A stretch of 64,000 nt of DNA, taken from the NCBI GenBank assembly GCA_964603545.1, contig CAZRVD010000003.1:4945-68944 (forward strand). Reading direction: 5' to 3'. A program made the translations under genes and the position numbers. Numbering within the stretch: position 1 is the stretch's first letter; every line of letters begins with the position of its first letter. Below, piece by piece: positions 2,192 through 63,726 of this stretch. The notes under the pieces were generated by a model that saw nothing but the letters and a program-made list of their open reading frames with translations, ran no database searches and was not told where the DNA came from. The stretch is from an uncultured Candidatus Saccharibacteria bacterium. GTDB lineage: Bacteria; Patescibacteriota; Minisyncoccia; Phycocordibacterales; DATDWN01.

Positions 2192-4000
2192 TTATGATTT
2201 TTGTTTACTTAACCATATTTTATATTTATTTGCCATATCTTCAAAACTTATACTGTTACTAGCAATCTCGTCTTTACCATGAACCATATATATTATTGCA
2301 TTCAAATCAACTTTTTTACGTGAACTTTTTACTGCTTTTGCTTTTGAAATTCTACTTTTAGCTCTTTTTAATATCTCAGGAAGTTTTAGTGTTACATTTC
2401 TAATATATGGATCAGCACTTAGCTTTTTGCCAGTAGATATTTTGACTAGTTCATTGAATGTCCTTGAACCTGCTAGTTTCCAGACTTTTGCCATATCTTC
2501 TCCAACTTTTGGGTTGTCTACTATATATCCATACTTTTCAAAGAAATACTCTCTCCATTGTGTTAAGGCTAGAGTTGCGAGTCCGTAACCGTGGTAGGAT
2601 CCTGATGATTCCCAAGAGTAAATATGCGGAACATTCAAAGCCCCCAATGATTCTTCTGATCTTACATAGTACTTTTTAAAATTTGCTTTTGCTATATCCA
2701 AAACTTTTTTTTCTGTAAGATTTTTTGTCTCATATATTTCTTTTTCAAAATTTGCCACAAAAATAATTCCATTTAGTCCAAGAGGTCTAACTGTGTAAGT
2801 TTTTTTAACAATTCTTTCATAAAGATCAAATGGATAGGACTCACCTTTTGAATTTACTGCATATTTAGCTTCCCACTCAGGACTAGAAAACACTGTATCT
2901 AAAAACATGCTTTGGGTTTCAGCCCAAGAAGTAGACATGGGATAATACTCATGATTTACGCAAACATCGACTTGTTCAGAGTTTAAAAGATGTGCGGCAT
3001 GCCCCCCTTCATGAAATAAAGTATGAATTCCTTGAGTACCAGAACCGATTTGATCGGGCACTACATTGCAAGTAAAGTTAGTTGAACCCGCTAATCTTTT
3101 ACCGTTTTCATATTTAACTAGTCCTGGCCAGTGGCAAAAACCATTGCTGTATTTTCCTTTTCTATCTAACAAGTCTAATCTCAATGTGCCGTTTCTAAAA
3201 TCTATTCCCATTCGGCTAAATGATAAACCCCATCTCAACAGAGCATCGCTGAATTGGAAATACTGGTCTTCTTCTTTTGCAAAACTTCCGGACATCATAA
3301 AACTAAAGTTCCAAGGTTTAGTTATGCCCGGCGTCTCGGTTTCAAGTTTTACCACTTCTTTCATTGCGTATTTAGTTTTTATATGAATCTTATCAAAAAT
3401 AGTAAAGAGCTCCTTTTTTGTCATTCCATCTTCTTTTCTAACTTTAAAATCATAAAAATCACTGTACCCGATAGTTTTAGCGTACTTGTTTCTTAGTTTT
3501 ACTACTTTTATGTAATCTTTTACTAAATATGTTGCTAGTTTTTCTTTTGCCTTAAAACAAGCTTCTCTGACTTTTTCATCAGGATCAGTGTATGTCATTG
3601 TAGACATCTTATTAATTGACGCTTTTACGAATTTTTTTGTATTCGGATCAACATAGCCTTCTTTTCTCGTAGCAAGTTTCTTATGTAAAAAATCTTCAAG
3701 TTTATCGATTTCTTTTTTAATTCCTCTTGCTTTGTCGGGTATTTGATAACCTTCAAAAAATTTTAACCATGTGTTTAGTCTTGTTACTTCTTCTTTATTT
3801 GCGCCTTTCAACAACTCTTTGATTTTTTTTGTATACCTTGAGTCTGATCTAAAAGCATCTCTTTTTGCTAGTGCATCAGCCTTCTTTTTATTAACTGAGT
3901 GGTCTCCCATATATGATAACCAAAAATAGTCTTCATAATTTTTATGCAGTTCAAAATACTTATTGTTTAATTCTTCCAAATATTCAGTCGCTTTGCTCAT
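2192..4000 (-). CDS. M3-family zinc metallopeptidase (oligoendopeptidase F-like)
   Basis: HEGGH zinc-binding motif ([13 protein letters not shown]) in a ~600-aa protein, in the position and length typical of PepF-like M3B peptidases. Confidence 0.55.
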
Positions 4001-4612
4001 TTACTTAATATATTTTGTTAAAACTTGAAAGTCTTTAAGGATGGTCTCCTTATTTGAGCCATCATACAGGGCGACAGCAGGGTGGTAAAGGGGTATTACA
4101 GCTATGGGACCGTAACTTGCCTTCGCCACAAACTCCTTGCCGTGGAGCTCTCCAATAGGTCCTATTTGATCGGTTAGGCCAAAGTGGTTCATAATATAGT
4201 TCATAGAAAACCTACCGAGGGTTGCGATAACTTCCGGCTGGATAATATCTATTTGTCTCTCCAAAAAAGGTGCATAAAGTTTTATTTCTTCTTCTGTGGG
4301 ATCACGGTTTTCTTGCGGACGGTCTTTTACAATATTAGTTATATACACATCACTCCTGTTAAGTTTTATTGATTCCAACATATTGTCTAGAACTTTTCCC
4401 GACTTACCACAAAAAGGTCTTCCTGTTTCGGCTTCGTTTTTCCCTGGAGCTTCTCCAATAAACATAATGTGCGCTGTGTGACTTCCCTCCCCAACTACTG
4501 GAAAATACTTATTCTCAACTCGGTAATCATATAACGGAGATTCTTTCAACTGCAAAACATCATTTCTAATCTCCTTCATTTTTTCAAATCTTTCTTCAAG
4601 TGTGAGTGACAT
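4001..4612 (-). CDS. Uracil-DNA glycosylase, family 4
   Basis: GEAPGKNEAETGRPFCGKSGKVL (family-4 motif A) and HPAVALY (motif B); 203 aa. Confidence 0.8.
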   Translation of the reverse strand: MSLTLEERFEKMKEIRNDVLQLKESPLYDYRVENKYFPVVGEGSHTAHIMFIGEAPGKNEAETGRPFCGKSGKVLDNMLESIKLNRSDVYITNIVKDRPQENRDPTEEEIKLYAPFLERQIDIIQPEVIATLGRFSMNYIMNHFGLTDQIGPIGELHGKEFVAKASYGPIAVIPLYHPAVALYDGSNKETILKDFQVLTKYIK

Positions 4613-27683: not shown

Positions 27684-28922
27684 CTATATCTTATTCCTTA
27701 GTAATTTGTGGAAACCAACCGCGTATCTATGTGCCTCAGCATTTGAAAGAAGTATTTCCCTTTCATATTTCAACCATTTTTTATCTCCCAATATTTCTTT
27801 CGCTCTGTGCCTCTCATCTTTTACAACAGAAACTATGGGAATATCTAGATTGTGTTCTTTTAAGACTCTTTCCATTACTCTCTTTTGCGCGACTCCCCCG
27901 TCTACAACGACAAGATCTGGAAATCTCCACTCTATATGTCCAAGTCTACGCGAAAGCACTTCACTTAATGCTTTTGTATCGTTTACTCCAGGACTTTCTT
28001 TGATTTTAAATTTTCTATAATCAGATTTTTTTATTTCTCCATCTTCCACCACAGTCATCACTCCAACAACATTTTCCCCAGACATATGAGCAATATCATA
28101 TGACTCAATTCGAAAACTGTGCAACATCGGATGTTGCACAAGTTTGCCTTCTTCTTTTATTAAAGACACATCCTGGATATGATTTAAAGTAAATAATGTA
28201 CGTTTAGTAATGTTTGCCTCCTCAAACTTTTTTTCTTTCGCGAAACTTCGCATTTGTTTCTCAAGGTTTTTCACTAGTTTCTTTTTATCTCCTTCAAAAA
28301 ACAGTTTTATGTTTTCAATTTGCTTCACATAATTCTCTTTTGAAATTTCACCAGTACAAACTCCAGGACAAAGTCCTATCTGGCGGTTGAAGCAAGGCTT
28401 ACCTGTGTTTGGTTCACATTTGTCACGAAAAGGAAACATTTTACGAACAATTTTCAAGGCTTCTTTTAATTGTGTTCCGTTTGGAAAAGGTCCAAATGAA
28501 TATGATATTTCATATTTTTCATCCTTAAGAAAATGCGAGTTTAAAAGTTCTCTACCACGTAGAATCAAAACTCTAGGAAATTCCTCATTTGTGACAGCAA
28601 CAAAGTTAAAACTTTTGTTGTCTTTCTCTTTTAAATTAGCCTCGGGTTGATATTTTTTTATCAAATGAGCTTCTAAAACAAGAGCCTCCAATACTGAGTC
28701 TGTTTTTGTAAAATTGATTGTACTAAACCCTCTCAACATTTTAGAAATAAGTGGTGAGCGCGTATTTACAATATCTTTATTGAAATAGCTTTTAACTCGA
28801 TCTTTTAGTGAAGTGGCTTTGCCTATATACAATATCTTTCCTTTTTTATTCAAGAAAAAATACACCCCAGGTGAATCTGGCAGTTTAGCTAAAATTTTCT
28901 TTGACGTTTGACTTTTCTTCAT
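27684..28922 (-). CDS. uvrC: Excinuclease ABC subunit C, short form (GIY-YIG + UvrBC-interaction + RNase-H-like endonuclease; no C-terminal HhH2)
   Basis: GVYFFLNKKGKILYIGKATSLKDRVKSYF GIY-YIG N-terminus. Start taken at MKKSQTSKK (ATG 28922) with TATAAT just upstream. The longer ORF to 29069 runs into G+C-rich foreign DNA. Confidence 0.85.
   Translation of the reverse strand: MKKSQTSKKILAKLPDSPGVYFFLNKKGKILYIGKATSLKDRVKSYFNKDIVNTRSPLISKMLRGFSTINFTKTDSVLEALVLEAHLIKKYQPEANLKEKDNKSFNFVAVTNEEFPRVLILRGRELLNSHFLKDEKYEISYSFGPFPNGTQLKEALKIVRKMFPFRDKCEPNTGKPCFNRQIGLCPGVCTGEISKENYVKQIENIKLFFEGDKKKLVKNLEKQMRSFAKEKKFEEANITKRTLFTLNHIQDVSLIKEEGKLVQHPMLHSFRIESYDIAHMSGENVVGVMTVVEDGEIKKSDYRKFKIKESPGVNDTKALSEVLSRRLGHIEWRFPDLVVVDGGVAQKRVMERVLKEHNLDIPIVSVVKDERHRAKEILGDKKWLKYEREILLSNAEAHRYAVGFHKLLRNKI
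28118..28140. repeat. 23-bp palindrome TGTGCAACATCGGATGTTGCACA, copy a (inside the uvrC CDS, in frame, encoding VQHPMLH)
   Basis: Exact identity with 57258-57280 and 59618-59640. Confidence 0.8.
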
Positions 28923-28957
28923 TTTATCATCATCATTATACACGGAGGGAAGGTGAA

Positions 28958-29092
28958 TGCACCTACAAACCAATTTGGCGTTTTGGGTTCTCGTCGGTGG
29001 TCTTGGACTTCTCATCATCTGGAAGAGACACAGGTTGATGGACAGGATTCTTGACGTGATGGACAGCATAGACGAAATACTTGGGTGGTGAC
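28958..29092 (+). CDS. Small hydrophobic peptide (44 aa, single TM), G+C-rich foreign
   Basis: GGAGGGAAGG SD then ATG. MHLQTNLAFWVLVGGLGLLIIWKRHRLMDRILDVMDSIDEILGW. Below the 60-aa cutoff of the ORF track. Confidence 0.4.
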
Positions 29093-34622: not shown

Positions 34623-34943
34623 CTACTTTTTTTTCTTAATTGGTAGTTCGTCCTGGTAAACACGACTCACACCACTTGCAGTCCAGACTTCAGTCAACAA
34701 GCCTTGGTTAATCCAATTGTAAATAGCCTTGGTGGAATAACCTGAGTATCTTGAAGCTCTCGTGATTGTCAGCGTGTTTCGATCGGGTTCAGAGGTCACA
34801 AGGCTGTCCCTGTACACAACTTTGTATCCACTCGGAGTCTCGTGACACTCTAGTTTACCCTCCGAAATCCATCTCTTAATGGTACGGATGTCGACACCAA
34901 CGATTTCAGCAGCTTTCTTCTTAGAAATAAGTTCTCTGCTCAC
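34623..34943 (-). CDS. Tandem helix-turn-helix DNA-binding protein (two excisionase/MerR-like HTH repeats)
   Basis: Two HTH units, AAEIVGVDIRTIKRWISEGKL and YSTKAIYNWINQGLL. G+C moderately elevated. Hairpins and a T-run lie downstream on the minus strand. Confidence 0.5.
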   Translation of the reverse strand: MSRELISKKKAAEIVGVDIRTIKRWISEGKLECHETPSGYKVVYRDSLVTSEPDRNTLTITRASRYSGYSTKAIYNWINQGLLTEVWTASGVSRVYQDELPIKKKK

Positions 34944-35007: not shown

Positions 35008-36219
35008 CTAATTTTTATCGTATTTTACCAAAAACTCCTTTTTATATTTTTTAAAATCACCAAACAACATTTCTTCTCGCATTTTAGAGACTAGGTGTGT
35101 AATAAAGTAAATATTGTGTATGGAAGTTAGCGTAGAAGCTAGCATTTCTTTGCTATGAAAAAGATGAGCAACATAGCTTCTAGTAAAGTTCACGCAGGTG
35201 TAACAACCACAATCCTCGTCGAGCGGTCTTAGATCACTTCTAAACTTTTCGTTAAGTAAATTTATCTTACCAAATTTTGTGTAAGCCCCTCCATTTCTGG
35301 CAATCCTTGTTGGCACGACACAATCAAAAAGATCACAACCATTTTCTACTGCCATAAAAAGATCTTCAGGTTCTCCTATACCAAGTAAATGTCTTGGTTT
35401 TTCTTTTGGAAGTATTTCGTTTACCCATTGCACTGCCTTGTCCATATCTTCTTTATCAAAGGAACCTCCAATACCAAAACCATCAAAATCTAATCCTCCA
35501 ATAAAATCAGCGGACTCTTTTCTTAACCTTTCACTTCTTCCTCCTTGAACTATCCCGAAAAGTGCCTGATACTCTGAATTCGGTTTTGATTTGTGGTATT
35601 CCAAAGATTGTTTTGCCCAACGATGTGTTCTGTCGAGTGCTTCTGCTTGATAATGGTCGCTTTCATTTGGAGAGGTGCACTCATCAAAAGCAAAAATAAT
35701 ATCTGCACCTAGATTATGTTGAATATCAATAGATTTTTCTGGAGTAAAATAATGAGCATCTCCGCTAATATGATCGCGAAACATGACACCATTTGGGTCT
35801 ATTTTTGCTATTTTGGGTAAATCATTTTCTTCATTTAATTCATCTAGTAGAATTTCTTCGTTTTTTTTGTGAGCAATTTTACTTAGTCCATTTTTACCGT
35901 ACGCCACACCAAGAGAAAATACTTGAAATCCTCCAGAGTCTGTCATAAGTGGCCCATTCCAATTCATTGCCTTATGAAGGCCACCAATTTTTGATATCTG
36001 CTCGTGTCCTGGTTCCAAATACAAATGATAAGTATTAGCAATAATAGTCTGCACTCCCGTTTCTTTCACTTGTTCTGGAGTAAGTGACTTTACGGTACCC
36101 TTTGTTCCAACCGCAACAAAAGCTGGAGTCTGTATGTCTCCATGTAGTGTATGTATTGTCCCAACTCTTCCCAAAGTTCCCGCCAACTCTTTATGTATTT
36201 CAAATTTAAGTGACTTCAT
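35008..36219 (-). CDS. tgt: Queuine tRNA-ribosyltransferase
   Basis: DSGGFQ, LLGIGEPEDL, zinc site CGCYTCVNFTRSYVAHL. Confidence 0.9.
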   Translation of the reverse strand: MKSLKFEIHKELAGTLGRVGTIHTLHGDIQTPAFVAVGTKGTVKSLTPEQVKETGVQTIIANTYHLYLEPGHEQISKIGGLHKAMNWNGPLMTDSGGFQVFSLGVAYGKNGLSKIAHKKNEEILLDELNEENDLPKIAKIDPNGVMFRDHISGDAHYFTPEKSIDIQHNLGADIIFAFDECTSPNESDHYQAEALDRTHRWAKQSLEYHKSKPNSEYQALFGIVQGGRSERLRKESADFIGGLDFDGFGIGGSFDKEDMDKAVQWVNEILPKEKPRHLLGIGEPEDLFMAVENGCDLFDCVVPTRIARNGGAYTKFGKINLLNEKFRSDLRPLDEDCGCYTCVNFTRSYVAHLFHSKEMLASTLTSIHNIYFITHLVSKMREEMLFGDFKKYKKEFLVKYDKN

Positions 36220-36283
36220 ATAATTTTTTTAAATCTAACACACTAAAGACCTTTTTCAAAAAACACCTGTATTCACTAACTTT

Positions 36284-36313
36284 TATTTCACAGCGATATA
36301 TCGCTGTGAAATA
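36284..36313. repeat. Perfect 30-bp palindrome TATTTCACAGCGATATATCGCTGTGAAATA, copy 1 (24-bp core TTCACAGCGATATATCGCTGTGAA)
   Basis: Identical to 36584-36613, exactly 300 bp apart. The core also occurs at 63101-63124 and 63561-63584. Confidence 0.9.
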
Positions 36314-36323
36314 TTCTATGTAT

Positions 36324-36540
36324 AAAAAAACGGGTGGGTTGGGAGCGATAGATTGCTCCCTTCCCACCCGGTTCGGACGGTTTCTTTCCACCGTCATTGG
36401 TATTGCTGGCCGACTGCGGCCCTGACACGGACGATCGAACGTGAGTACGAGCGTAAGGTCGAAACAAGCTAGGAGTTCGAAACGGACGAGACAGAGTCGA
36501 AGTTTCCGAGGCAATAGGTGAAGGCATCCCTCCACCGCTA
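36324..36540 (-). ncRNA. Candidate ~215-nt small RNA in a G+C-rich cassette bracketed by the palindromes
   Basis: Promoter TTGACT(36570-36575)-17-TATGCT(36547-36552) on the minus strand. Terminator CGGGTGGGaagggagcaatctatcgctcccaaCCCACCCG + T7 at 36324-36370. No credible ORF (only low-complexity S/P/R read-through frames). Repeated UUCGA-containing hairpins. Confidence 0.35.
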
Positions 36541-36546
36541 ACAGCA

Positions 36547-36575
36547 AGCATACACCCATTCTCTAGTAAAGTCAA
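36547..36575 (-). promoter_or_regulatory. sigma70-like promoter (TTGACT -17- TATGCT) of the candidate sRNA, directly abutting palindrome copy 2
   Basis: Read directly on the minus strand. The palindrome centre lies ~60 nt upstream of the predicted TSS. Confidence 0.45.
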
Positions 36576-36583
36576 GTACACTT

Positions 36584-36613
36584 TATTTCACAGCGATATA
36601 TCGCTGTGAAATA
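36584..36613. repeat. Palindrome copy 2 (identical 30-mer)
   Basis: See 36284-36313. Confidence 0.9.
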
Positions 36614-36624
36614 AAAGAGAGTAA

Positions 36625-36662
36625 CCAAAAAACAGACTTACTTTAGTCTGTTTTTTGGTTTG
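36625..36662 (-). terminator. Bidirectional intrinsic terminator downstream of the FKBP gene
   Basis: CAGACTtactttAGTCTG hairpin with T6 on both strands. Confidence 0.5.
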
Positions 36663-36681: not shown

Positions 36682-37131
36682 TTACTCCACCTTTAACAAC
36701 TCGATTTCGAAAATAAGTGTTGAACCAGCTGGTATGGGCCCATAATCCTGATACCCATACCCAAGCTCTGGAGGAACAACTACTATTCTCTTTCCACCAA
36801 CCCTCATTCCAACAAGTCCTTCATCCCAACCTTTTATAACCTGCCCACTACCTAGCACAAACTGAAACGGTTCACCTCTCGTTACTGAACTGTCAAAAAC
36901 ATTTCCATCTGTAAACTTGCCCGTATAGTGAACCACAACCCTACTTCCAGTTTTTGCTTCTTCTCCTGTTCCAACTACAATATCTTGTCCCATAATTTGT
37001 GAAGTTTGAGCAGTGCTCTCATTTGTTTTACTAAACATTGAAACTAATCCTTGCCCAAAAATAAAGAAAAATCCAACAATAAAAACAGAAACTACTACTG
37101 CTACCCATTCATTTTTACTTAATTTTTTCAT
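36682..37131 (-). CDS. FKBP-type peptidyl-prolyl cis-trans isomerase with N-terminal membrane anchor
   Basis: VVVHYTGKFTDGNVFDSS...GWDEGLVGMRVGGKRIVVVPPELGYG. Confidence 0.8.
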   Translation of the reverse strand: MKKLSKNEWVAVVVSVFIVGFFFIFGQGLVSMFSKTNESTAQTSQIMGQDIVVGTGEEAKTGSRVVVHYTGKFTDGNVFDSSVTRGEPFQFVLGSGQVIKGWDEGLVGMRVGGKRIVVVPPELGYGYQDYGPIPAGSTLIFEIELLKVE

Positions 37132-53392: not shown

Positions 53393-53407
53393 TCCGTTTT
53401 CTGTTTA

Positions 53408-53443
53408 CCCCCGAACTAATTTTAGTAAATTCAGTTCTGGGGG
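53408..53443. repeat. Hairpin element CCCCCGAACTaattttagtaaattcAGTTCTGGGGG, copy 1
   Basis: Near-identical copies at 54905-54940 and 56793-56830; split copy at 56453-56471 / 56731-56749. Confidence 0.8.
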
Positions 53444-53459
53444 TGGATAATAATTTTAC

Positions 53460-54896
53460 CTAGTTAAGTGGACAATTTTCTGGAATAACAAACTGACCAA
53501 CCAAAGTTGAGTAAGCTGTGTTTGTTCCAGGATAAGCCCCGTTAAACATCGATATGACTTGTGCTTGGCTGTAAGGGAAGTCCAAACTGCCTGCGTTGAG
53601 TAGTGCTACCACCGTCTCTCTTCCAAGCTGATTTAATCCCCCACCACCCAGTTGCAAAACTTGTAACAAAGTTTTACCAGGAAAAGCGTTGTCGAAGACA
53701 GAAGAGTATAGTTGGTTCGGTGAGTAACCAGACCAGCTGTCAAAATGTTGACTTGCCTTCCAGTAACCATGTGAACAGTACTGGTTATTTTCTTCCTCAA
53801 CTTTAAGTTTATTTACAACTATAAATGTTTCTGTGGGATCATTAACAATAACTCCTAGACCCCCCGCGCCCGAAACATGTTCCCAGCCTTCCTGTAACAC
53901 CTCACTTATCTCATGAGTACCATAAGACACGCCAGTGAAAGCAACACAGCCATTTTGCAGAGTTACTCCAGAGTAATCCTCAATATTACCCGGTAGACCA
54001 TCATTTAAATTCAAGGTCCAACCAGAAAGAGGTTTACCTGTTTCATCTGTTTTACACAAAGTTACAGTTGATTTGTCTTCTTCTTCGTCATTTCCACAAA
54101 TAAACCCATCGTTACCCCTAGATTGAATCACAGAGAAAGTGACATCGGCTTTTACGCCGTCACTTTGAACTATGTTTCCTATTTCTTCACCTTCGCATTT
54201 AAAACCAGTTCCTCTTACTAGAGGTCCGTTGTTACCTGTTTTACCTAAACCATCTTGAGTTACTGGATAGTCCTGCATATCGCCAAAGCACCAGGCTTTA
54301 CCAATATACCTGACAGAATTTCCAATAAGCGGGTCATCACCTCCCCAAATGTTTCCATTTGAGTCAGCGATAGCCCAATTTTCTCCATTCCAAATATCTT
54401 TTACCAAACCTTTTTTGAATATTTTTTCTCCTATCTCATAAACATTATCTCCGTCGTCTGCCCAGAATTTGAAATACAATTTGTCTTGTAACTCACCACT
54501 GTTTTCTCCGGTGGTTACGTCCACAAGACTTTCTGGTTCATTCTGACCATTCTCTGGAGTGGCAGTAAGCAGTATATTCATACACGCCCAAGCATTGTTA
54601 TTGTTTACGTGAAGTGAAATAGTATCCTCTCCAATATCTCCTGGCTTTATATCAAGAAAGTTAAAGAAAAACTTACCCGCAAGCGGAGAAAGTTCCCAAG
54701 AAGTGGATGTGCTGTAAACCAGCTTGCCCCACTCGTTTGTTATATAACTTTCGTTGTCGATTTTTAGGTCGATAACCCCTGTGGCAAAAGTATTACCTGT
54801 GGACTTTTCTGTATCGGAGAGGTATGCTCCTGTACCAGTGGCCAGGATTGCTCCAGCAAAGATTATGGAAGTTATACTTAATAGTATTTTTTTCAT
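53460..54896 (-). CDS. TasA/camelysin-like secreted protein, paralog 2 (479 aa from MKKILLSITS)
   Basis: MKKILLSITSIIFAGAILATGTGAYLSDTEKSTGNTFATGVIDL. The longer ORF to 55007 reads through the upstream hairpin element. Confidence 0.7.
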   Translation of the reverse strand: MKKILLSITSIIFAGAILATGTGAYLSDTEKSTGNTFATGVIDLKIDNESYITNEWGKLVYSTSTSWELSPLAGKFFFNFLDIKPGDIGEDTISLHVNNNNAWACMNILLTATPENGQNEPESLVDVTTGENSGELQDKLYFKFWADDGDNVYEIGEKIFKKGLVKDIWNGENWAIADSNGNIWGGDDPLIGNSVRYIGKAWCFGDMQDYPVTQDGLGKTGNNGPLVRGTGFKCEGEEIGNIVQSDGVKADVTFSVIQSRGNDGFICGNDEEEDKSTVTLCKTDETGKPLSGWTLNLNDGLPGNIEDYSGVTLQNGCVAFTGVSYGTHEISEVLQEGWEHVSGAGGLGVIVNDPTETFIVVNKLKVEEENNQYCSHGYWKASQHFDSWSGYSPNQLYSSVFDNAFPGKTLLQVLQLGGGGLNQLGRETVVALLNAGSLDFPYSQAQVISMFNGAYPGTNTAYSTLVGQFVIPENCPLN

Positions 54897-54904
54897 TTTT
54901 TCTT

Positions 54905-54940
54905 GCCCCCGAACTAATTTTAATAAATTCAGTTCTGGGG
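54905..54940. repeat. Hairpin element, copy 2
   Basis: CCCCCGAACTAATTTTAATAAATTCAGTTCTGGGGG. Confidence 0.8.
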
Positions 54941-55051
54941 GTAACTTTCTAACCCACTTTCTTTGTTTGGTTGCGAAGCACGACTCTAGAGAGTTATGCC
55001 CCGCCACCTACAAAGATTAATGAGTTAGGAAAATTTTAGTTTAGAGTTCTA

Positions 55052-56434: not shown

Positions 56435-56452
56435 AATTAATTTTATTTTTTA

Positions 56453-56749
56453 CCCCCGAACTAATTAGGACTTAAGACTCTTACTTATCCTCCTTTTCAA
56501 ACCACCTAAAGACCTACCGTGCTCCTTGAGCATTTTCTCTCTATGTGTGGCGTCTTCCCTTAGTTTATATGCTTCGTAATATATCAACTCAAATGGCTTT
56601 CGTAATTTGGTTGATGTACTCTTACCCGAATTATGTTCTTCTATTCTCCTCTTGAGATTATTTGTGTATCCGGTGTAAAGATTTCCATCTTTCTCACTTT
56701 TTAAAATATACACATAGAACATAATTCAAAGTCCTAATTAGTTCGGGGG
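56453..56749 (-). mobile_element. GIY-YIG nuclease gene inserted into the loop of a hairpin element, bounded by 19-bp inverted repeats CCCCCGAACTAATTAGGAC
   Basis: Left arm 56453-56471, right arm (reverse complement) 56731-56749. The interior 56465-56722 encodes the GIY-YIG protein. Confidence 0.5.
56465..56722 (-). CDS. Small GIY-YIG domain nuclease (UPF0213/YhbQ-like, 85 aa)
   Basis: MFYVYILKSEKDGNLYTGYTNNLKRRIEEHNSGKS. Confidence 0.8.
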   Translation of the reverse strand: MFYVYILKSEKDGNLYTGYTNNLKRRIEEHNSGKSTSTKLRKPFELIYYEAYKLREDATHREKMLKEHGRSLGGLKRRISKSLKS

Positions 56750-56792
56750 TTGATTAATTTTTATAATACTTTTTATAATTTTGTTTACTTTA

Positions 56793-56830
56793 CCCCCGAA
56801 CTAAATTTTAATAAATTTCAGTTCAGGGGG
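56793..56830. repeat. Hairpin element, copy 3 (intact, upstream of the TasA-like array)
   Basis: CCCCCGAACTAAATTTTAATAAATTTCAGTTCAGGGGG. Confidence 0.75.
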
Positions 56831-57257
56831 TCGACCTTCTCTTCTCAAACTAAGCCCTTGGAATTCGCAAATAATTACAAAAACAAAAAGAGCTGTCTCT
56901 GTTGTAATATTAAAATTACTGCAGAGATAGCTCTTTTGCGTGTTCCAAGTGGTTTGTTTCAAGAAAAGTAACTAACATCTTTTCTAACTTACTTAAGAAC
57001 TAATTTATATCTTGATCTAAACCAAGATAAAGTTCATCGTATCACGCTGTTTTTTTATCAAAATAATAAATACTAAAAAAGTGTATAACTTGTGGAGAAC
57101 AAGTGTAAAACTCTACAAATATGAGTGAAAAAACGTGAAAATATAGTAAAATTTGACAAAATTTTAAAAAATTGAAAAACAAAAAATACCTTGACCAAAT
57201 TGAGATTTACAAAAAACTACACCATACTTGTGTAGCTTTTTGTAACCTATTGAGTAT

Positions 57258-57280
57258 TGTGCAACATCGGATGTTGCACA
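57258..57280. repeat. 23-bp palindrome TGTGCAACATCGGATGTTGCACA, copy b (8 nt past the stop of the 57289-57969 gene)
   Basis: Exact match to copies a and c. Confidence 0.8.
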
Positions 57281-59479: not shown

Positions 59480-59617
59480 ATGAAAAATTATTGTATATGA
59501 TTCCTCACCACTTTTTCGTTACTTTTTGCCTCAATTTCCCTCCAATCTTCTTCACTAAAATGTCTACCCTCCGCCTTTCCTTCGTAATGTGCTCGCCAAT
59601 TTTGATACGTCTCTGCT

Positions 59618-59640
59618 TGTGCAACATCGGATGTTGCACA
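59618..59640. repeat. 23-bp palindrome, copy c (5 nt past the stop of the 59645-60052 gene)
   Basis: Exact match. Confidence 0.8.
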
Positions 59641-59644
59641 ATTA

Positions 59645-60067: not shown

Positions 60068-63061
60068 CTAATAACTAATTTTTAAAAGGTCTCCATCCGT
60101 TTTAACAGTAACCACAACAAGCCCTGGTTTTGTACTCACCACTGCCCCGTCCCTGGTTTTCTCCCTTACAACTGTAGTATTGGTTGCCTTTCTGTAGTTA
60201 AATACATACTTTTCCACACCCTTCGCAACAACCCTTGTATCTAAGTCTGTTAGAACTCCTTTCTTTTCCTGCCAATCATAAACTATATCTGTATTTGGAA
60301 GATTTGTTGTAACCCCGTTTCTAATAATTTTGTTATAAGTAAATCTAAATCTCGTTGGGAACTCTATAAATTTAGTAAACGGAATAACTGTTGTGTTACC
60401 CTGGTTGTCTATAAGAGTTGTGGAAGTACTAGTTGTCAGTATTGTTGGATTTGGGTCTATCAAATTTACTGCAGAGAAAACAACGTCCTTTGTACTAGTT
60501 GAGAAAGTAACCTGTAGCTCTGGAGGAGTACTGTCATATACAGTTACACTATTTTCTTTGGCTTCTAGTATTTTATCTACTATTCCATCTCCATTTCCAT
60601 CAATTTTCAGTGTAGAGCTAGCTACACTTGTATTTGGAACTATATTCATTTCTACCAAAGTAGAAACTGTGGATGGAACACCTTGGAAAGAAGTAGTTTC
60701 TATAATATTGTTCCCAACTTGCTTATCTACATCCAGCGAGAAACTCCCACTATGAAGACCCTTAAGTTTCAAAGTAAGTGTTAGGTCGTTTGGAGTAGAA
60801 ATAAACTGTACGTCACCTATTTGCTCATAATTAACATCTGGAATTTCCTCTCTTATTTTACCTGTTACTGGATCCTTTCCTGTATACCTACCAAATGAAT
60901 CTGTTACCCCCAATGTGAGTGGTGAATGAAGTGTGTAATGCAGACGATTTTTACTAGAAATTAAAGTTGATGCATTGTCTACAACTATATTACTTGAATC
61001 AGAAAAAACTGTATTATTAAAAGTTGATGAAATAAAATCTAATATGTTTGGAATTTCTAAAATATCCCTGTGCTTCCTATTTACTCCACCAACCGGATCA
61101 TTGTACTTCCACAAATCCACCCACCACCTCTCAACATTCGGTGTGGATGTAGACATCCACAAGGCACTAGGCACAACAACCGTACCGTCACCATCTACCA
61201 CATACCGAGGTTTGTAAGAAAGATATTCTGTTCCAGAAGAATTCAAATAGGATTTATAATCCACCCCAGCTATTGTTTCCTCTCCCCATCCGGCTATTTG
61301 TATAACTTTGGTTGTAGAAGCTGGTTGCCACAAATCTAATACAGCATGCATACTCTGTGCATCTGCATACAAACCAGAGTTTCCAATATTTGGGTGAACG
61401 GTGTCATCAAAGGCAGGTTTGCTTCTTCCGTCTGTTCCTAAAATATAATTTTTAAGCTCCGTATTATTTGAAACAAAAAGTCCGTACTCTGAAGTCTGTG
61501 GATTGAAAAACGGTTTATCTTCAAAAGTAGCCACCTTATCTACCACAAACCCTGGATCAACTATTGAAAAATATCCTTCAGAAGGTAATAGGTTGTAAAT
61601 AGCCGGCATGTTCTCAGAAAGGTCTCTGGAACGAGCGTTGTCCATAATCAGCCCATAACCCAAACCTTTCCCGTGAAGTAAAGCTACTACGGCATCTGGT
61701 GTTCCCACTTGTGGCACAGCAACAAAAATTATTTTATCTATTTTGTTGTAAATTGGATTGTTGGTATCCTTCAATTTTTGAACTAAAGCTTTTATTACCA
61801 AGCCTCCGTTTGAATGCCCAATGAGTGTCACTTTACCTGTCCCAGAATTTTGCTGTAACTCTTGTAATTTTTTAAGAATGTAACTTTCAGAAAAATTTTG
61901 TGAATTGTTATAGAAAAGTCTGTTTCTAGTTGTACTCGCACCAAATGTTATGATGTCATTTAAAGAAAGTCGCCAGTCATAAGGGATAAAAGCATAGTCA
62001 GGTATAATGCCGTCATTTTTCCAATTTCGGAGTTCTGTTATGAAAGAATTGTAAACATTCGCTCCAAATACTTCATCCATCACTCCAGTCTCCGCTTCAT
62101 CACTTATACTCTGGGTATCGTCTTTTGTATAAATAGGATTTAAACTTTTACCGGTAGTATTAAGTGAAAGTTTGGTATGTTTTGAATCAGATGTTGAAAG
62201 CCACAACTCATCGTCGTGGAAACACTCATTACCAATCAAACTAGTCCCACAATCAATCGTTCCCAATTCTTCATAAAGTCTAGAACTCATTACCCCAGGA
62301 AAAAACATCACGCTCGAATTACCTGTCGGTGGTGGAGATACAACTTCACCAGTAAAAACTGCCGAAACAGTCACAATATTTGTCCCAGAAGAGGCATAAG
62401 TAGTATTCCCACTCAAAATTCTTTGAGCCAAAACTGGTGGATCAATCGACTCAATACTCAAATCACAATTAAAAACTTTTCCTTTTAGGCTTTGCGGAAG
62501 AGGATTCCCGTACTTACTAGAATCATAATCTGCCGGGCATTCACCTTCGAAACATGGCGACTTAATACTTACATTCCAGTCATCCACCGCATCAGTCGGA
62601 CCGTTTATCTCACCGGTCGCAACCAAAGACACATGAGAAGCATCCTGAAGAAAACCAACTTCAGTTACTTCAGTTGTCGTTGATTGGATATTTGGTTCTA
62701 TTCCAATATATGGACAAAGGTTGTAATTTCCATCAATACAGTTGTAATCATCATCATACAAACTACATGACTGAAAACGGTTTATTTTGTAACCCGCCAA
62801 GCCCTCATCCCACTCAAAATGAGAAGCAAAAGCTGGATCAATAGAAATAGCAAGTGGGGTTGTAGTACTTTCAAGAGACGCTAATATAACATTAGTAGAA
62901 GGACTGTTTACCTCATAAAGAGCAAAAAACGCAGAGACAAACGGCGTACTTAGTAGAAAAAAGAGCAATAGTGATAGGGCAAAAACAAATAATGACTTTG
63001 TTTTCTTTTCCATATTGACCGTCATATTACTCACAGCCCTCCCTTGGTCAATATTGCTCAC
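60068..63061 (-). CDS. Large (~980-997 aa) secreted/membrane-anchored protein containing an alpha/beta-hydrolase (lipase/esterase, GHSxG) domain
   Basis: N-terminal TM LFVFALSLLLFFLLSTPFVSAFF. VTLIGHSNGGLVIKALV nucleophile elbow. Long Thr/Ser/Val-rich beta-rich C-terminal region. Confidence 0.5.
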   Translation of the reverse strand: MSNIDQGRAVSNMTVNMEKKTKSLFVFALSLLLFFLLSTPFVSAFFALYEVNSPSTNVILASLESTTTPLAISIDPAFASHFEWDEGLAGYKINRFQSCSLYDDDYNCIDGNYNLCPYIGIEPNIQSTTTEVTEVGFLQDASHVSLVATGEINGPTDAVDDWNVSIKSPCFEGECPADYDSSKYGNPLPQSLKGKVFNCDLSIESIDPPVLAQRILSGNTTYASSGTNIVTVSAVFTGEVVSPPPTGNSSVMFFPGVMSSRLYEELGTIDCGTSLIGNECFHDDELWLSTSDSKHTKLSLNTTGKSLNPIYTKDDTQSISDEAETGVMDEVFGANVYNSFITELRNWKNDGIIPDYAFIPYDWRLSLNDIITFGASTTRNRLFYNNSQNFSESYILKKLQELQQNSGTGKVTLIGHSNGGLVIKALVQKLKDTNNPIYNKIDKIIFVAVPQVGTPDAVVALLHGKGLGYGLIMDNARSRDLSENMPAIYNLLPSEGYFSIVDPGFVVDKVATFEDKPFFNPQTSEYGLFVSNNTELKNYILGTDGRSKPAFDDTVHPNIGNSGLYADAQSMHAVLDLWQPASTTKVIQIAGWGEETIAGVDYKSYLNSSGTEYLSYKPRYVVDGDGTVVVPSALWMSTSTPNVERWWVDLWKYNDPVGGVNRKHRDILEIPNILDFISSTFNNTVFSDSSNIVVDNASTLISSKNRLHYTLHSPLTLGVTDSFGRYTGKDPVTGKIREEIPDVNYEQIGDVQFISTPNDLTLTLKLKGLHSGSFSLDVDKQVGNNIIETTSFQGVPSTVSTLVEMNIVPNTSVASSTLKIDGNGDGIVDKILEAKENSVTVYDSTPPELQVTFSTSTKDVVFSAVNLIDPNPTILTTSTSTTLIDNQGNTTVIPFTKFIEFPTRFRFTYNKIIRNGVTTNLPNTDIVYDWQEKKGVLTDLDTRVVAKGVEKYVFNYRKATNTTVVREKTRDGAVVSTKPGLVVVTVKTDGDLLKISY

Positions 63062-63094
63062 GCTCCAAAAAAATGTTCTAATTTTTTACTCCAG

Positions 63095-63130
63095 TATTAA
63101 TTCACAGCGATATATCGCTGTGAATTAATA
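63095..63130. repeat. Perfect 36-bp palindrome TATTAATTCACAGCGATATATCGCTGTGAATTAATA, copy 3 of the 24-bp core
   Basis: Between the stop of the YerC-like gene and the start of the large hydrolase gene. Confidence 0.9.
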
Positions 63131-63131
63131 C

Positions 63132-63536
63132 CTATTTTGCATATTTTCTCCAATACTTTTTTCCTATCTTGGGTGGCATTAATCCACCCACCGTCATAAT
63201 GCTCCAAATTATTTTCTCTAGATCTATTTTTTCTCTCTGAGATGTTTTTAAAATGGAATTATACTTCCCTATTTCCATCTTTAGAGAAATCATTGTAATA
63301 GTTGAAGTACTTACCTTTAATATTTCTGAGATTGAAAGCTGTGGTATTTTTGAATTCAACAATAATACAATAGCAATTCTTTTAGCTAGCATTAGCTTTT
63401 CTGTATCGGTCAAAAGTTCATTGACTACCCCAGACAACAACTTTTTATTCTGAGATTTATTCAAGATCAGTATTAGATCATTAAATAACTTGTCTGAAAG
63501 TTCCTTATCCAATTCCTTACTAGAGATATGTGGCAT
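63132..63536 (-). CDS. TrpR/YerC/YecD-family helix-turn-helix protein (135 aa)
   Basis: LTDTEKLMLAKRIAIVLLLNSKIPQLSISEILKVSTSTITMIS matches the YerC/TrpR-like HTH. Start at MPHISS. The longer ORF to 63800 reads through palindrome copy 4. Confidence 0.5.
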   Translation of the reverse strand: MPHISSKELDKELSDKLFNDLILILNKSQNKKLLSGVVNELLTDTEKLMLAKRIAIVLLLNSKIPQLSISEILKVSTSTITMISLKMEIGKYNSILKTSQREKIDLEKIIWSIMTVGGLMPPKIGKKYWRKYAK

Positions 63537-63556: not shown

Positions 63557-63588
63557 ATATTTCACAGCGATATATCGCTGTGAAATAT
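63557..63588. repeat. Perfect 32-bp palindrome ATATTTCACAGCGATATATCGCTGTGAAATAT, copy 4, ~25 nt upstream of the YerC-like start codon
   Basis: Read directly. Confidence 0.9.
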
Positions 63589-63726
63589 ATTAATGGCGAA
63601 TTATAGGATGTCAAATGAGAGAATGTCAAAGGATTGAGAACTAAGAAATCTAGAGTAAGTAAAATTTTAAAATAAGAAAAAGCAATCTTGCTATTTATTA
63701 TTACAAAAAAACAATCCGCGATAGTT

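Follow-up and report, generated by a model that had tools for sequence, protein, structure and literature searches.

Perfect palindromes around the gene of a TrpR-fold protein in a Patescibacterial genome: candidate operators of a presumably autoregulated regulator

Introduction

Why does one and the same perfect palindrome stand, in pairs, on either side of two different units of a bacterial genome? The question is raised by a stretch of 64,000 nucleotides of contig CAZRVD010000003.1 from an uncultured Candidatus Saccharibacteria bacterium (the whole stretch is called the window below). One pair of palindromes encloses a small G+C-rich unit upstream of tgt, the gene of queuine tRNA-ribosyltransferase; the other encloses the gene of a 134-aa helix-turn-helix (HTH) protein. 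An initial annotation, made from the sequence alone, offered three readings: operators of a dimeric HTH regulator; recombination sites that captured a foreign cassette; and an insulator resembling repetitive extragenic palindromes (REP) or miniature inverted-repeat transposable elements (MITE).

In our opinion, the palindromes are probably the cognate operators of the 134-aa protein, which has the fold of the tryptophan repressor TrpR and would regulate its own gene. Comparative genomics strongly supports the first reading: the gene lies between two palindromes in each of eight lineages, and the sequence of the sites appears to change together with that of the protein.

To our knowledge, gene regulation in Patescibacteria (the candidate phyla radiation, CPR) is almost unexplored, the organisms being uncultured and their genomes containing few recognisable regulators. 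The locus provides a concrete candidate regulator-operator pair with a predictable binding motif, natural variants of both protein and site that amount to a built-in specificity test, and the first candidate members of a regulon, namely tgt, a secreted LCAT-like hydrolase, a new small RNA (sRNA) and a small open reading frame (ORF) beside grpE.

Results and discussion

Sparse and specific palindromic sites

The 24-bp core TTCACAGCGATATATCGCTGTGAA is present in four exact copies, starting at 36287, 36587, 63101 and 63561, where none would be expected by chance; as the initial annotation had stated, the last two (63101-63124 and 63561-63584) flank the HTH gene. No further copy appears in the window when up to three mismatches are allowed, and none was found in 100 shuffled sequences. 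The 30-mer TATTTCACAGCGATATATCGCTGTGAAATA, identical at 36284-36313 and 36584-36613, was also correctly described, with a start-to-start distance of 300 bp, though this spacing has no counterpart among the brackets around the regulator gene, which span 452, 459, 460, 464, 476, 489 and 500 bp.

Taken to the limits of their symmetry, the four sites, to which no strand is assigned, are all perfect palindromes: site A (36582-36615, 34 bp), site B (36284-36313, 30 bp), site C (63557-63588, 32 bp) and site D (63094-63131, 38 bp). No other zero-spacer palindrome of the window has arms of 12 bp or more, and 20 shuffled sequences contain none, a sparseness and specificity that support the operator model. 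A fifth copy with one mismatch (site E) lies on locus L103 of the same genome (18764-18793), about 7 kb beyond the start of the window. The total is thus five copies in about 74 kb of this genome among some 70 genes, so the palindrome is not a generic terminator found at every gene end. In the other species, the 6 kb on either side of the regulator gene contain just the two copies that flank it.

An exact search with a 20-bp core yielded no match in 185,579 species genomes and one in a metagenome collection; the latter falls within an ORF for a histidine kinase in a high-G+C organism and is a chance match. These numbers do not support the REP/MITE-like reading of a repeat family. REP sequences and their associated tyrosine transposases (RAYTs) do offer a likeness, being short extragenic palindromes at gene 3' ends, with two inverted copies flanking the gene of the presumed binding protein. 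Unlike in that system, the flanked gene here encodes a TrpR-fold HTH protein without any match to the HUH/Y1 (Y1_Tnp) domain, five copies occur in the 74 kb covered, a low number, the palindromes are perfect rather than imperfect with a bulge, and there is no evidence of dissemination.

A distinct subfamily of TrpR-fold proteins

The bracketed gene (63132-63536, minus strand) encodes a protein that matches the Pfam family Trp_repressor (PF01371) over residues 21-97 (E = 1.8e-8; 34.8 bits against a cut-off of 27), and its homologues bear precomputed PF01371 annotation. The structure predicted from an alignment of 88 sequences (pLDDT 82.6) shows the TrpR architecture, all-helical and with helices D and E forming the HTH; the two HTH helices are predicted at residues 66-73 and 77-88. 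The protein had been described as TrpR/YerC-like, of which the first half stands and the second does not. Thus, the NCBIfam model of YerC/YecD, that is, of HisR (TIGR02531, cut-off 42.2 bits), gives the window protein no match at E <= 1 and at most 17.9 bits, and its homologues 12.9-24.9 bits. Neither is the protein a TrpR proper: the equivalog model TIGR01321, with a cut-off of 67.25 bits, scores it at 27.5 bits and the homologues at 17.6-35.6 bits.

An exhaustive profile search (E <= 1e-10) places at least 1,172 clusters at 50% identity in the family. Nearly all members align from Met1, are 130-140 aa long and share the signature MPHIS...ELLT.TE..MLAKR...LK.S(P/T)ST...GMPP..GK.RW; an exact look-up of the window protein itself returned no record. 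Since the Pfam threshold is passed, the curated NCBI models fail and the clusters are so numerous, the protein is a member of a large TrpR-fold branch that is still uncharacterised, and it is not a HisR/YerC orthologue. As judged from sequence, this regulator subfamily is distinct and widespread in Patescibacteria.

Two palindromes around the gene in eight lineages

Regulator homologues and their flanks were retrieved from seven further lineages, giving eight with the window. In all eight, with protein identities of 100, 70, 69, 59, 55, 54, 52 and 35%, a palindrome stands on each side of the gene, and the two have a lineage-specific core in common. The core is TTTCACTACA-RTATAY-TGTAGTGAAA on either side in CAZSNI01 (locus L085, 69%) and ATATAGCGATATATCGCTATAT on either side in CAYYOM01 (L088, 70%). 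Perfect palindromes of 44 and 30 bp surround ACTACGATATATCGTAGT in CAYMJQ01 (L089, 55%), and those of Ga0172379 (L091, 54%) measure 30 and 34 bp and have the same core as CAYMJQ01. CAYITW01 (L098, 59%) has palindromes of 44 and 50 bp around CTACTACATTATAATGTAGTAG, a Logan lineage (L092, 52%) has imperfect versions around ACAGTATACTGG, and the most divergent protein, from CAZFBT01 (L105, 35%, a genome of higher G+C content), has palindromes of 40 and 24 bp around TTTCGATATATCGAAA. In seven lineages the distance from the end of the upstream palindrome to the ATG is 7-28 nt, and in four of these seven the downstream one abuts or overlaps the stop codon.

Within this variation a few positions are fixed. 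Counted from the axis, A at -1, T at -2 and C at -5 occur in 36/36 half-sites and A at -9 in 34/36; the centre CGATATATCG is common, and the consensus can be written ..TYACWRCRATA/TATYGYWGTRA.. (the stroke marks the axis). These invariant bases indicate that the sites are homologous across the family, with the other positions tracking the lineage: TTCAC-AGCG-ATATAT in the window, TTCAC-TACA-RTATAY in CAZSNI01, ATAT-AGCG-ATATAT in CAYYOM01, CTACTACG-ATATAT in CAYMJQ01 and Ga0172379, CTACTACA-TTATAA in CAYITW01 and TTTCG-ATATAT in CAZFBT01. Parallel variation is seen in the predicted recognition helix, STST going with (A/T)(G/T)CG and SPxT with TAC(G/A). Moreover, loci L085 and L004 belong to one metagenome-assembled genome (MAG), that of CAZSNI01, which has its own palindrome variant both around the regulator gene (L085) and upstream of tgt (L004). 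A genome's own variant is thus found at both regulator and tgt there, just as in the window.

The order ApbE-oxidoreductase-regulator-LCAT is kept in four species, and the bracket stays with the gene where the neighbours are different (L091, L092, L098 and L105). The genes rpsJ (S10) and rplC (L3) are normally adjacent; in CAYITW01 (L098, 2265-5311) the bracketed regulator gene sits between them, in an interval that also holds a PG_binding_1 gene, small ORFs and a 660-bp gap.

Placement of the sites and the proposed operator model

The regulator gene of the window is preceded by a predicted promoter that the initial annotation missed, TTGACA-18-TATAAT (63600-63629, minus strand), which matches the consensus at 12/12 positions and has a predicted start at about 63593. 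It ends 11 nt before site C, which accordingly occupies about +5 to +36. The centre of site C lies at about +20 and 36.5 nt before the ATG, which corrects the earlier estimate of about -25 relative to the gene start, and its near edge ends 20 nt before the ATG. In L091 an 11/12 promoter is followed by the site at about +15 to +44, and in L089 a weaker promoter stands in the same relation to its site. With predicted promoters, then, both site C and the L091 site are where the cognate site of an autoregulated repressor should be, at or just past its own promoter.

Site D abuts the stop codon of the regulator gene, and its centre is 87 nt upstream of the ATG (63025) of the next gene. The latter (60068-63025, minus strand) encodes a 985-aa secreted protein with an LCAT/alpha-beta-hydrolase domain; in four species this gene is found past the bracket, and it is a candidate member of the regulon. 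Another is tgt (35008-36219, minus strand; Pfam TGT, E = 6.6e-135). Its promoter, TTGAAA-16-TAGATT with a TG extension (36232-36259, minus strand), has an extended -10 element that is kept across the clade. The predicted tgt start lies about 73 nt past the centre of site B and, in L004, about 63 nt past the counterpart, which has the core of that species. Site E is associated with a small unit on L103 (18854-19099) that is divergent from grpE and contains a 65-aa ORF without a Pfam match. The unit has 48% G+C against 35%, a near-consensus promoter (TTGACA-18-TACAAT), a GGGAGG Shine-Dalgarno sequence and a strong terminator, with site E 13 nt further on; an Rfam search of this region returned nothing relevant.

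We suggest the following model. The protein, presumably a dimer by analogy with TrpR and HisR (the fold being that of an intertwined homodimer, for which the dyad-symmetric sites beside the gene in 8/8 lineages are indirect support), would recognise a dyad-symmetric site composed of an invariant core (C at -5, a TA/TA centre and A at -9; often CGATATATCG) and species-specific outer positions. Bound at site C, just past the start point of its own promoter, it would repress its own gene, and autorepression through occupation of the early transcribed region would be the simplest reading of this arrangement. The second operator, site D, is found past the gene in every case, and may either act in cooperation with site C or prevent transcription from running on into the next gene. 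Three further units may be under the same factor: tgt (site B, kept in the nearest relative), the sRNA (site A, in this species only) and the small G+C-rich ORF unit near grpE (site E).

Several observations weigh against this interpretation. The link between regulator and sites is a genomic association, and the correlation between recognition helix and site is confounded by phylogeny. The sites extend over 24-30 bp or more, compared with 20 bp for TrpR and HisR, and their TrpR-like ACT elements are 12 bp apart rather than 8, so the binding geometry of TrpR cannot be carried over to them as it is. The promoters are predicted, their assignment in A+T-rich DNA is uncertain, three lineages have no clear upstream promoter, and no recognisable promoter adjoins site E. 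The perfect symmetry, which is specific to each copy and reaches 38-50 bp, goes beyond the need of a dimer operator. Finally, sites A, B, D and E are all at 3' ends of transcription units, either 9-17 nt past a terminator stem or abutting a stop codon. Because of this last placement, a roadblock to read-through may be an alternative to classical promoter control.

The palindrome could also be a promoter element in itself, TTCACA-17-AATATT with a TG extension, readable on both strands. Indeed, a promoter scan flags it at sites B, C and E (9/12 with TG). The -10-like part, however, falls in the variable flank and is missing at sites A and D, and better promoters adjoin sites A, B and C. Moreover, orthologous palindromes (ACTACG..., ATAGCG..., TTTCG...) lose the -35-like hexamer TTCACA yet keep the bracket. 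As the promoter-like hexamers are not kept in orthologous sites, this explanation fails, and we regard it as extremely improbable.

Perfect symmetry beyond the shared core

In each site the perfect symmetry extends past the core that it has in common with its sister site, and the outer arms differ between copies. This was quantified at the positions within 15 bp of the axis where the two gene-flanking copies of one genome differ: of such copy-specific cells, 24/32 are mirrored on the other arm, compared with about 34% expected (P = 3e-6).

Perfect pairing at copy-specific positions, in arms of up to 25 bp, is what would be expected if the palindromes worked as nucleic-acid hairpins, that is, as RNA stem-loops at transcript ends or as DNA cruciforms. 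They would then be boundary, stability or termination elements, with the TrpR-like gene being one of the delimited units or its protein binding the extruded hairpin. The placement of sites A, B, D and E fits this as well, being shared by the L004 site, which also follows an intrinsic-terminator stem within the same 9-17 nt, and by the orthologues of site D, which abut or overlap the stop codon. The transcript from the 12/12 promoter would carry site C as a hairpin at its 5' end; the one mismatch of site E is a U-G wobble on the strand of the upstream small ORF; and a second palindrome family of the window (D6), described below, is likewise found directly past stop codons.

A purely structural role, however, would leave unexplained both the 8/8 association with one protein family and the invariance of C at -5, TA/TA and A at -9 in stems that otherwise differ. 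The imperfect L092 sites, with two central mismatches that are a wobble on neither strand, fit an operator better than a stem. Intrinsic termination in particular was considered and rejected, since the palindromes lack a following U-tract and sites A, B and E have strong canonical terminators ahead of them. On balance, hairpins in place of operators seem unlikely to us.

How, then, would operators acquire such symmetry? The most economical answer is template switching during replication, which would correct quasipalindromes; this mutational mechanism is known to bring imperfect inverted repeats closer to perfect symmetry (PMC7202029). The imperfect L092 sites and the invariant bases favour this explanation. 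A functional need for hairpin or cruciform formation remains the other explanation, kept alive by the consistent placement at 3' ends. In its strongest form, the TrpR-fold protein and its palindromes would constitute a self-bracketing boundary system in which the protein recognises, besides duplex DNA, hairpins extruded from DNA or formed by RNA where transcription units end. We consider this unlikely; if true, the perfect copy-specific symmetry would be a functional requirement, and Patescibacteria would possess a widespread protein-dependent insulator or terminator module, or else the domesticated remnant of a hairpin-using mobile element.

A G+C-rich RNA unit between two sites

Sites A and B enclose the unit that first drew attention to the locus. 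On the minus strand, the order is the gene of an FKBP-type isomerase (36682-37131), its terminator, site A, a promoter, a transcript of about 215 nt, a terminator, site B, the tgt promoter and tgt. The terminator of the FKBP gene is a bidirectional intrinsic one (36623-36660, minus strand); site A begins 9 nt past it and lies 6 nt upstream of the -35 hexamer of the predicted promoter TTGACT-17-TATGCT (36547-36575, minus strand). The RNA (36324-36540, minus strand) is rich in G+C and in pyrimidines and contains a 5' hairpin, UGCCUCG...CUUCGAC modules and a terminator (36370-36324, minus strand) formed by a strong hairpin (36370-36331) and seven U residues. Site B follows 10 nt past the U-run and 17 nt past the stem. 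A sigma70-like promoter, a non-coding RNA of about this length and a strong terminator had all been proposed for the minus strand, and they are borne out as predicted features, the RNA folding more stably than shuffled controls (z = -3.7).

Orthologous tgt loci, 80 in all, were retrieved from related MAGs, and the related loci were compared at the position of the insert (36314-36583). In the nearest relative (L004 of MAG CAZSNI01), whose TGT is 84% identical to that of the window, the FKBP-tgt interval contains a TTGACT promoter (TTGACT-17-TAAACT, its -35 region being the part kept), a G+C-rich and pyrimidine-rich transcript, a terminator and then one palindrome upstream of tgt; there is no palindrome upstream of the RNA promoter, i.e., no counterpart of site A. 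The L004 RNA (3830-4035; z = -4.1) has the 5' hairpin of the window RNA and also its UGCCUCG...CUUCGAC and CUGUCUCGUCC modules. The position between FKBP and tgt is empty in the more distant relatives L005, L006 and L010. It should be noted that other relatives have different G+C-rich units with strong TTGACA...TATAAT promoters and terminators (L007, 5640-5960; L008, 2330-2640; L009, 5830-5960), and the interval looks like a hotspot for small transcription units.

The window unit and L004 have no credible ORF in common and differ by indels that are not multiples of three, so the unit is taken to be non-coding. Motif searches detect the RNA in the window and L004 only, and nhmmer and blastn searches of the 80 tgt loci return a single 38-nt match, in L004; the two RNAs have only about 55 alignable nucleotides in common. 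Between these two sequences, five pairs of the 5' hairpin are invariant and two show one-sided changes, with no compensatory change and hence no statistical support from covariation. No Rfam 15 family covers the RNA body, whether in the window (gathering score or E <= 10) or in L004 (E <= 1), and duplex folding against 58 start regions gave implausible alignments without enrichment for genes adjacent to the sites.

That the 270 bp enclosed by sites A and B are G+C-rich (53-59%, compared with about 35% in the surroundings) is correct; the foreign origin once read into this composition is not supported, given the homologue in L004. High G+C is usual for structured RNAs in A+T-rich genomes. As the tRNA encoded in the window (58% G+C) shows the same, the composition is no sign of horizontal capture. 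On the available sequence comparisons, the RNA is a lineage-specific, vertically inherited sRNA encoded by an ordinary chromosomal gene. If the palindromes are operators of one factor, what looked like a cassette is simply an RNA gene lying between two of them. The sRNA is new and narrowly distributed, and it is probably one member of the regulon.

These results bear directly on the remaining explanation, that each pair of palindromes marks a small mobile or invertible cassette, as its terminal inverted repeats or its recombination sites, with the HTH gene as a DNA-binding component in one and the sRNA in another. The layout repeat-payload-repeat, found with two different payloads, suggests as much. 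At the asymmetric sites of L085 and L092, one copy is the reverse complement of the other; the gene and its bracket are found in the differing neighbourhoods noted above, including that between rpsJ and rplC; and the HTH has weak cross-matches to the N-termini of IS630 transposases. Furthermore, the outer flanks of sites A and B (36275-36313 and 36584-36622) match inverted at 7/9 further bases, giving 39 nt at 95%. This match and the missing site A in the nearest relative hint that site A may be an inverted duplication of site B.

Nevertheless, the 134-aa protein has no catalytic domain, and no integrase, resolvase, recombinase or transposase was called among the genes up to 10 kb away from the sites. 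Each locus set has the gene once, with no second copy in 74 kb, and 2.9 million viral contigs contain no relative of the protein. No target-site duplications are seen around either bracket of the window, and four contigs of one species have the same orientation throughout, so the locus lacks what would mark integron, pdif or inverton-type cassettes. The synteny kept in four species argues in the same direction. The RNA of the nearest relative is accompanied by one palindrome only, which leaves the captured-cassette reading, like the REP/MITE one, unsupported; mobile or invertible cassettes thus appear highly improbable to us.

Relation to known regulatory systems

Proteins of the TrpR family bind palindromes of about 20 bp, and about half of hisR genes are autoregulated (PMC9413887). 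Among the systems closest to the one proposed here is that of HisR, the histidine repressor (YerC of Bacillus subtilis; PMC9413887), with which it has in common palindromic operators, frequent autoregulation through a site at the regulator's own gene, and a lineage-specific operator consensus that co-varies with the protein. The window protein exceeds HisR by about 35 residues; its N-terminus has the conserved MPHIS, and its C-terminal extension the motif GMPP..GK.RW. The HisR operator is the 20-bp cacTTTAnnnnnnTAAAgtg upstream of his and histidine-transport genes (PMC9413887), whereas the window sites are longer and of different sequence, the regulator gene is always flanked by two of them, and the candidate targets (tgt, the sRNA and the LCAT-like protein) are unrelated to histidine.

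E. coli TrpR, with its operators at trp, aroH and trpR, is comparable in that the operators are dyad-symmetric and overlap or lie just past promoters, that trpR is autoregulated, and that the half-site contains ACT (TACTAC here, GTACTAG in trpO). Its tandem dimer binding (1TRR) is a precedent for long symmetric sites. Apart from the ACT spacing, the differences are that there is no evidence here for tryptophan as a ligand and that TrpR genes are not known to lie between two operators.

Dual-operator loops (lac O1/O2/O3, gal OE/OI and deo) likewise consist of two identical operators that enclose a promoter or gene at a distance of a few hundred base pairs, one of them near the start of transcription. 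Unlike in those systems, no tetramerisation domain is evident here, and helical phasing is not conserved: over spacings of 300-500 bp the fractional turns are scattered and no common phase emerges. Looping between the window operators is a conjecture.

Compared with known autoregulation in the TrpR family, what is new is the distinct Patescibacterial subfamily, the longer sites, the two-operator bracket in every lineage examined and the perfect symmetry. Two operators around the regulator's own gene, with perfect symmetry kept well past the shared core, are unusual for this family and pose a mechanistic question.

Assembly breaks and other repeats

The window belongs to a Patescibacterial MAG of Paceibacteria/Zambryskibacteria-like affiliation. 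Near-identical contigs from ENA, Logan and "Parcubacteria group bacterium Gr01-1014_46" are 99.995-100% identical to the window. The palindromes also have a practical consequence, as they break or fold back metagenome assemblies. Thus, the Logan contig L003 ends within site B, L100 is a 968-bp perfect fold-back contig around the downstream palindrome, and the assemblies L101 and L102 stop 140-190 bp past site C.

Long perfect palindromes also occur in other Paceibacteria, which have their own zero-spacer examples of 30-40 bp at loci where no TrpR-like gene is present: L058 (6364-6393 and 9432-9471), L040 (2666-2697), L059 (10424-10455) and L069 (3537-3566). The two in L058 are related and 3 kb apart, one apparently within tgt.

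The second palindrome family of the window, TGTGCAACATCGGATGTTGCACA, has identical copies at 28118-28140, 57258-57280 and 59617-59641; two are found 3-8 nt past minus-strand stop codons without a U-tract and one lies inside a 461-aa ORF (27684-29069). A third repeat family, ACCCCCGAACT...AGTTCNGGGGGT (53398-53444, 54896-54942 and 56785-56831; also 56452-56473 / 56729-56750), consists of G+C-rich stems 3' of paralogous genes for SpaA-like surface proteins, and these stems resemble terminators duplicated together with the genes. Finally, a 106-aa protein with two MerR/excisionase-like HTH repeats is encoded between tgt and uvrB (34623-34943, minus strand), a position that is kept in L002 and L003.

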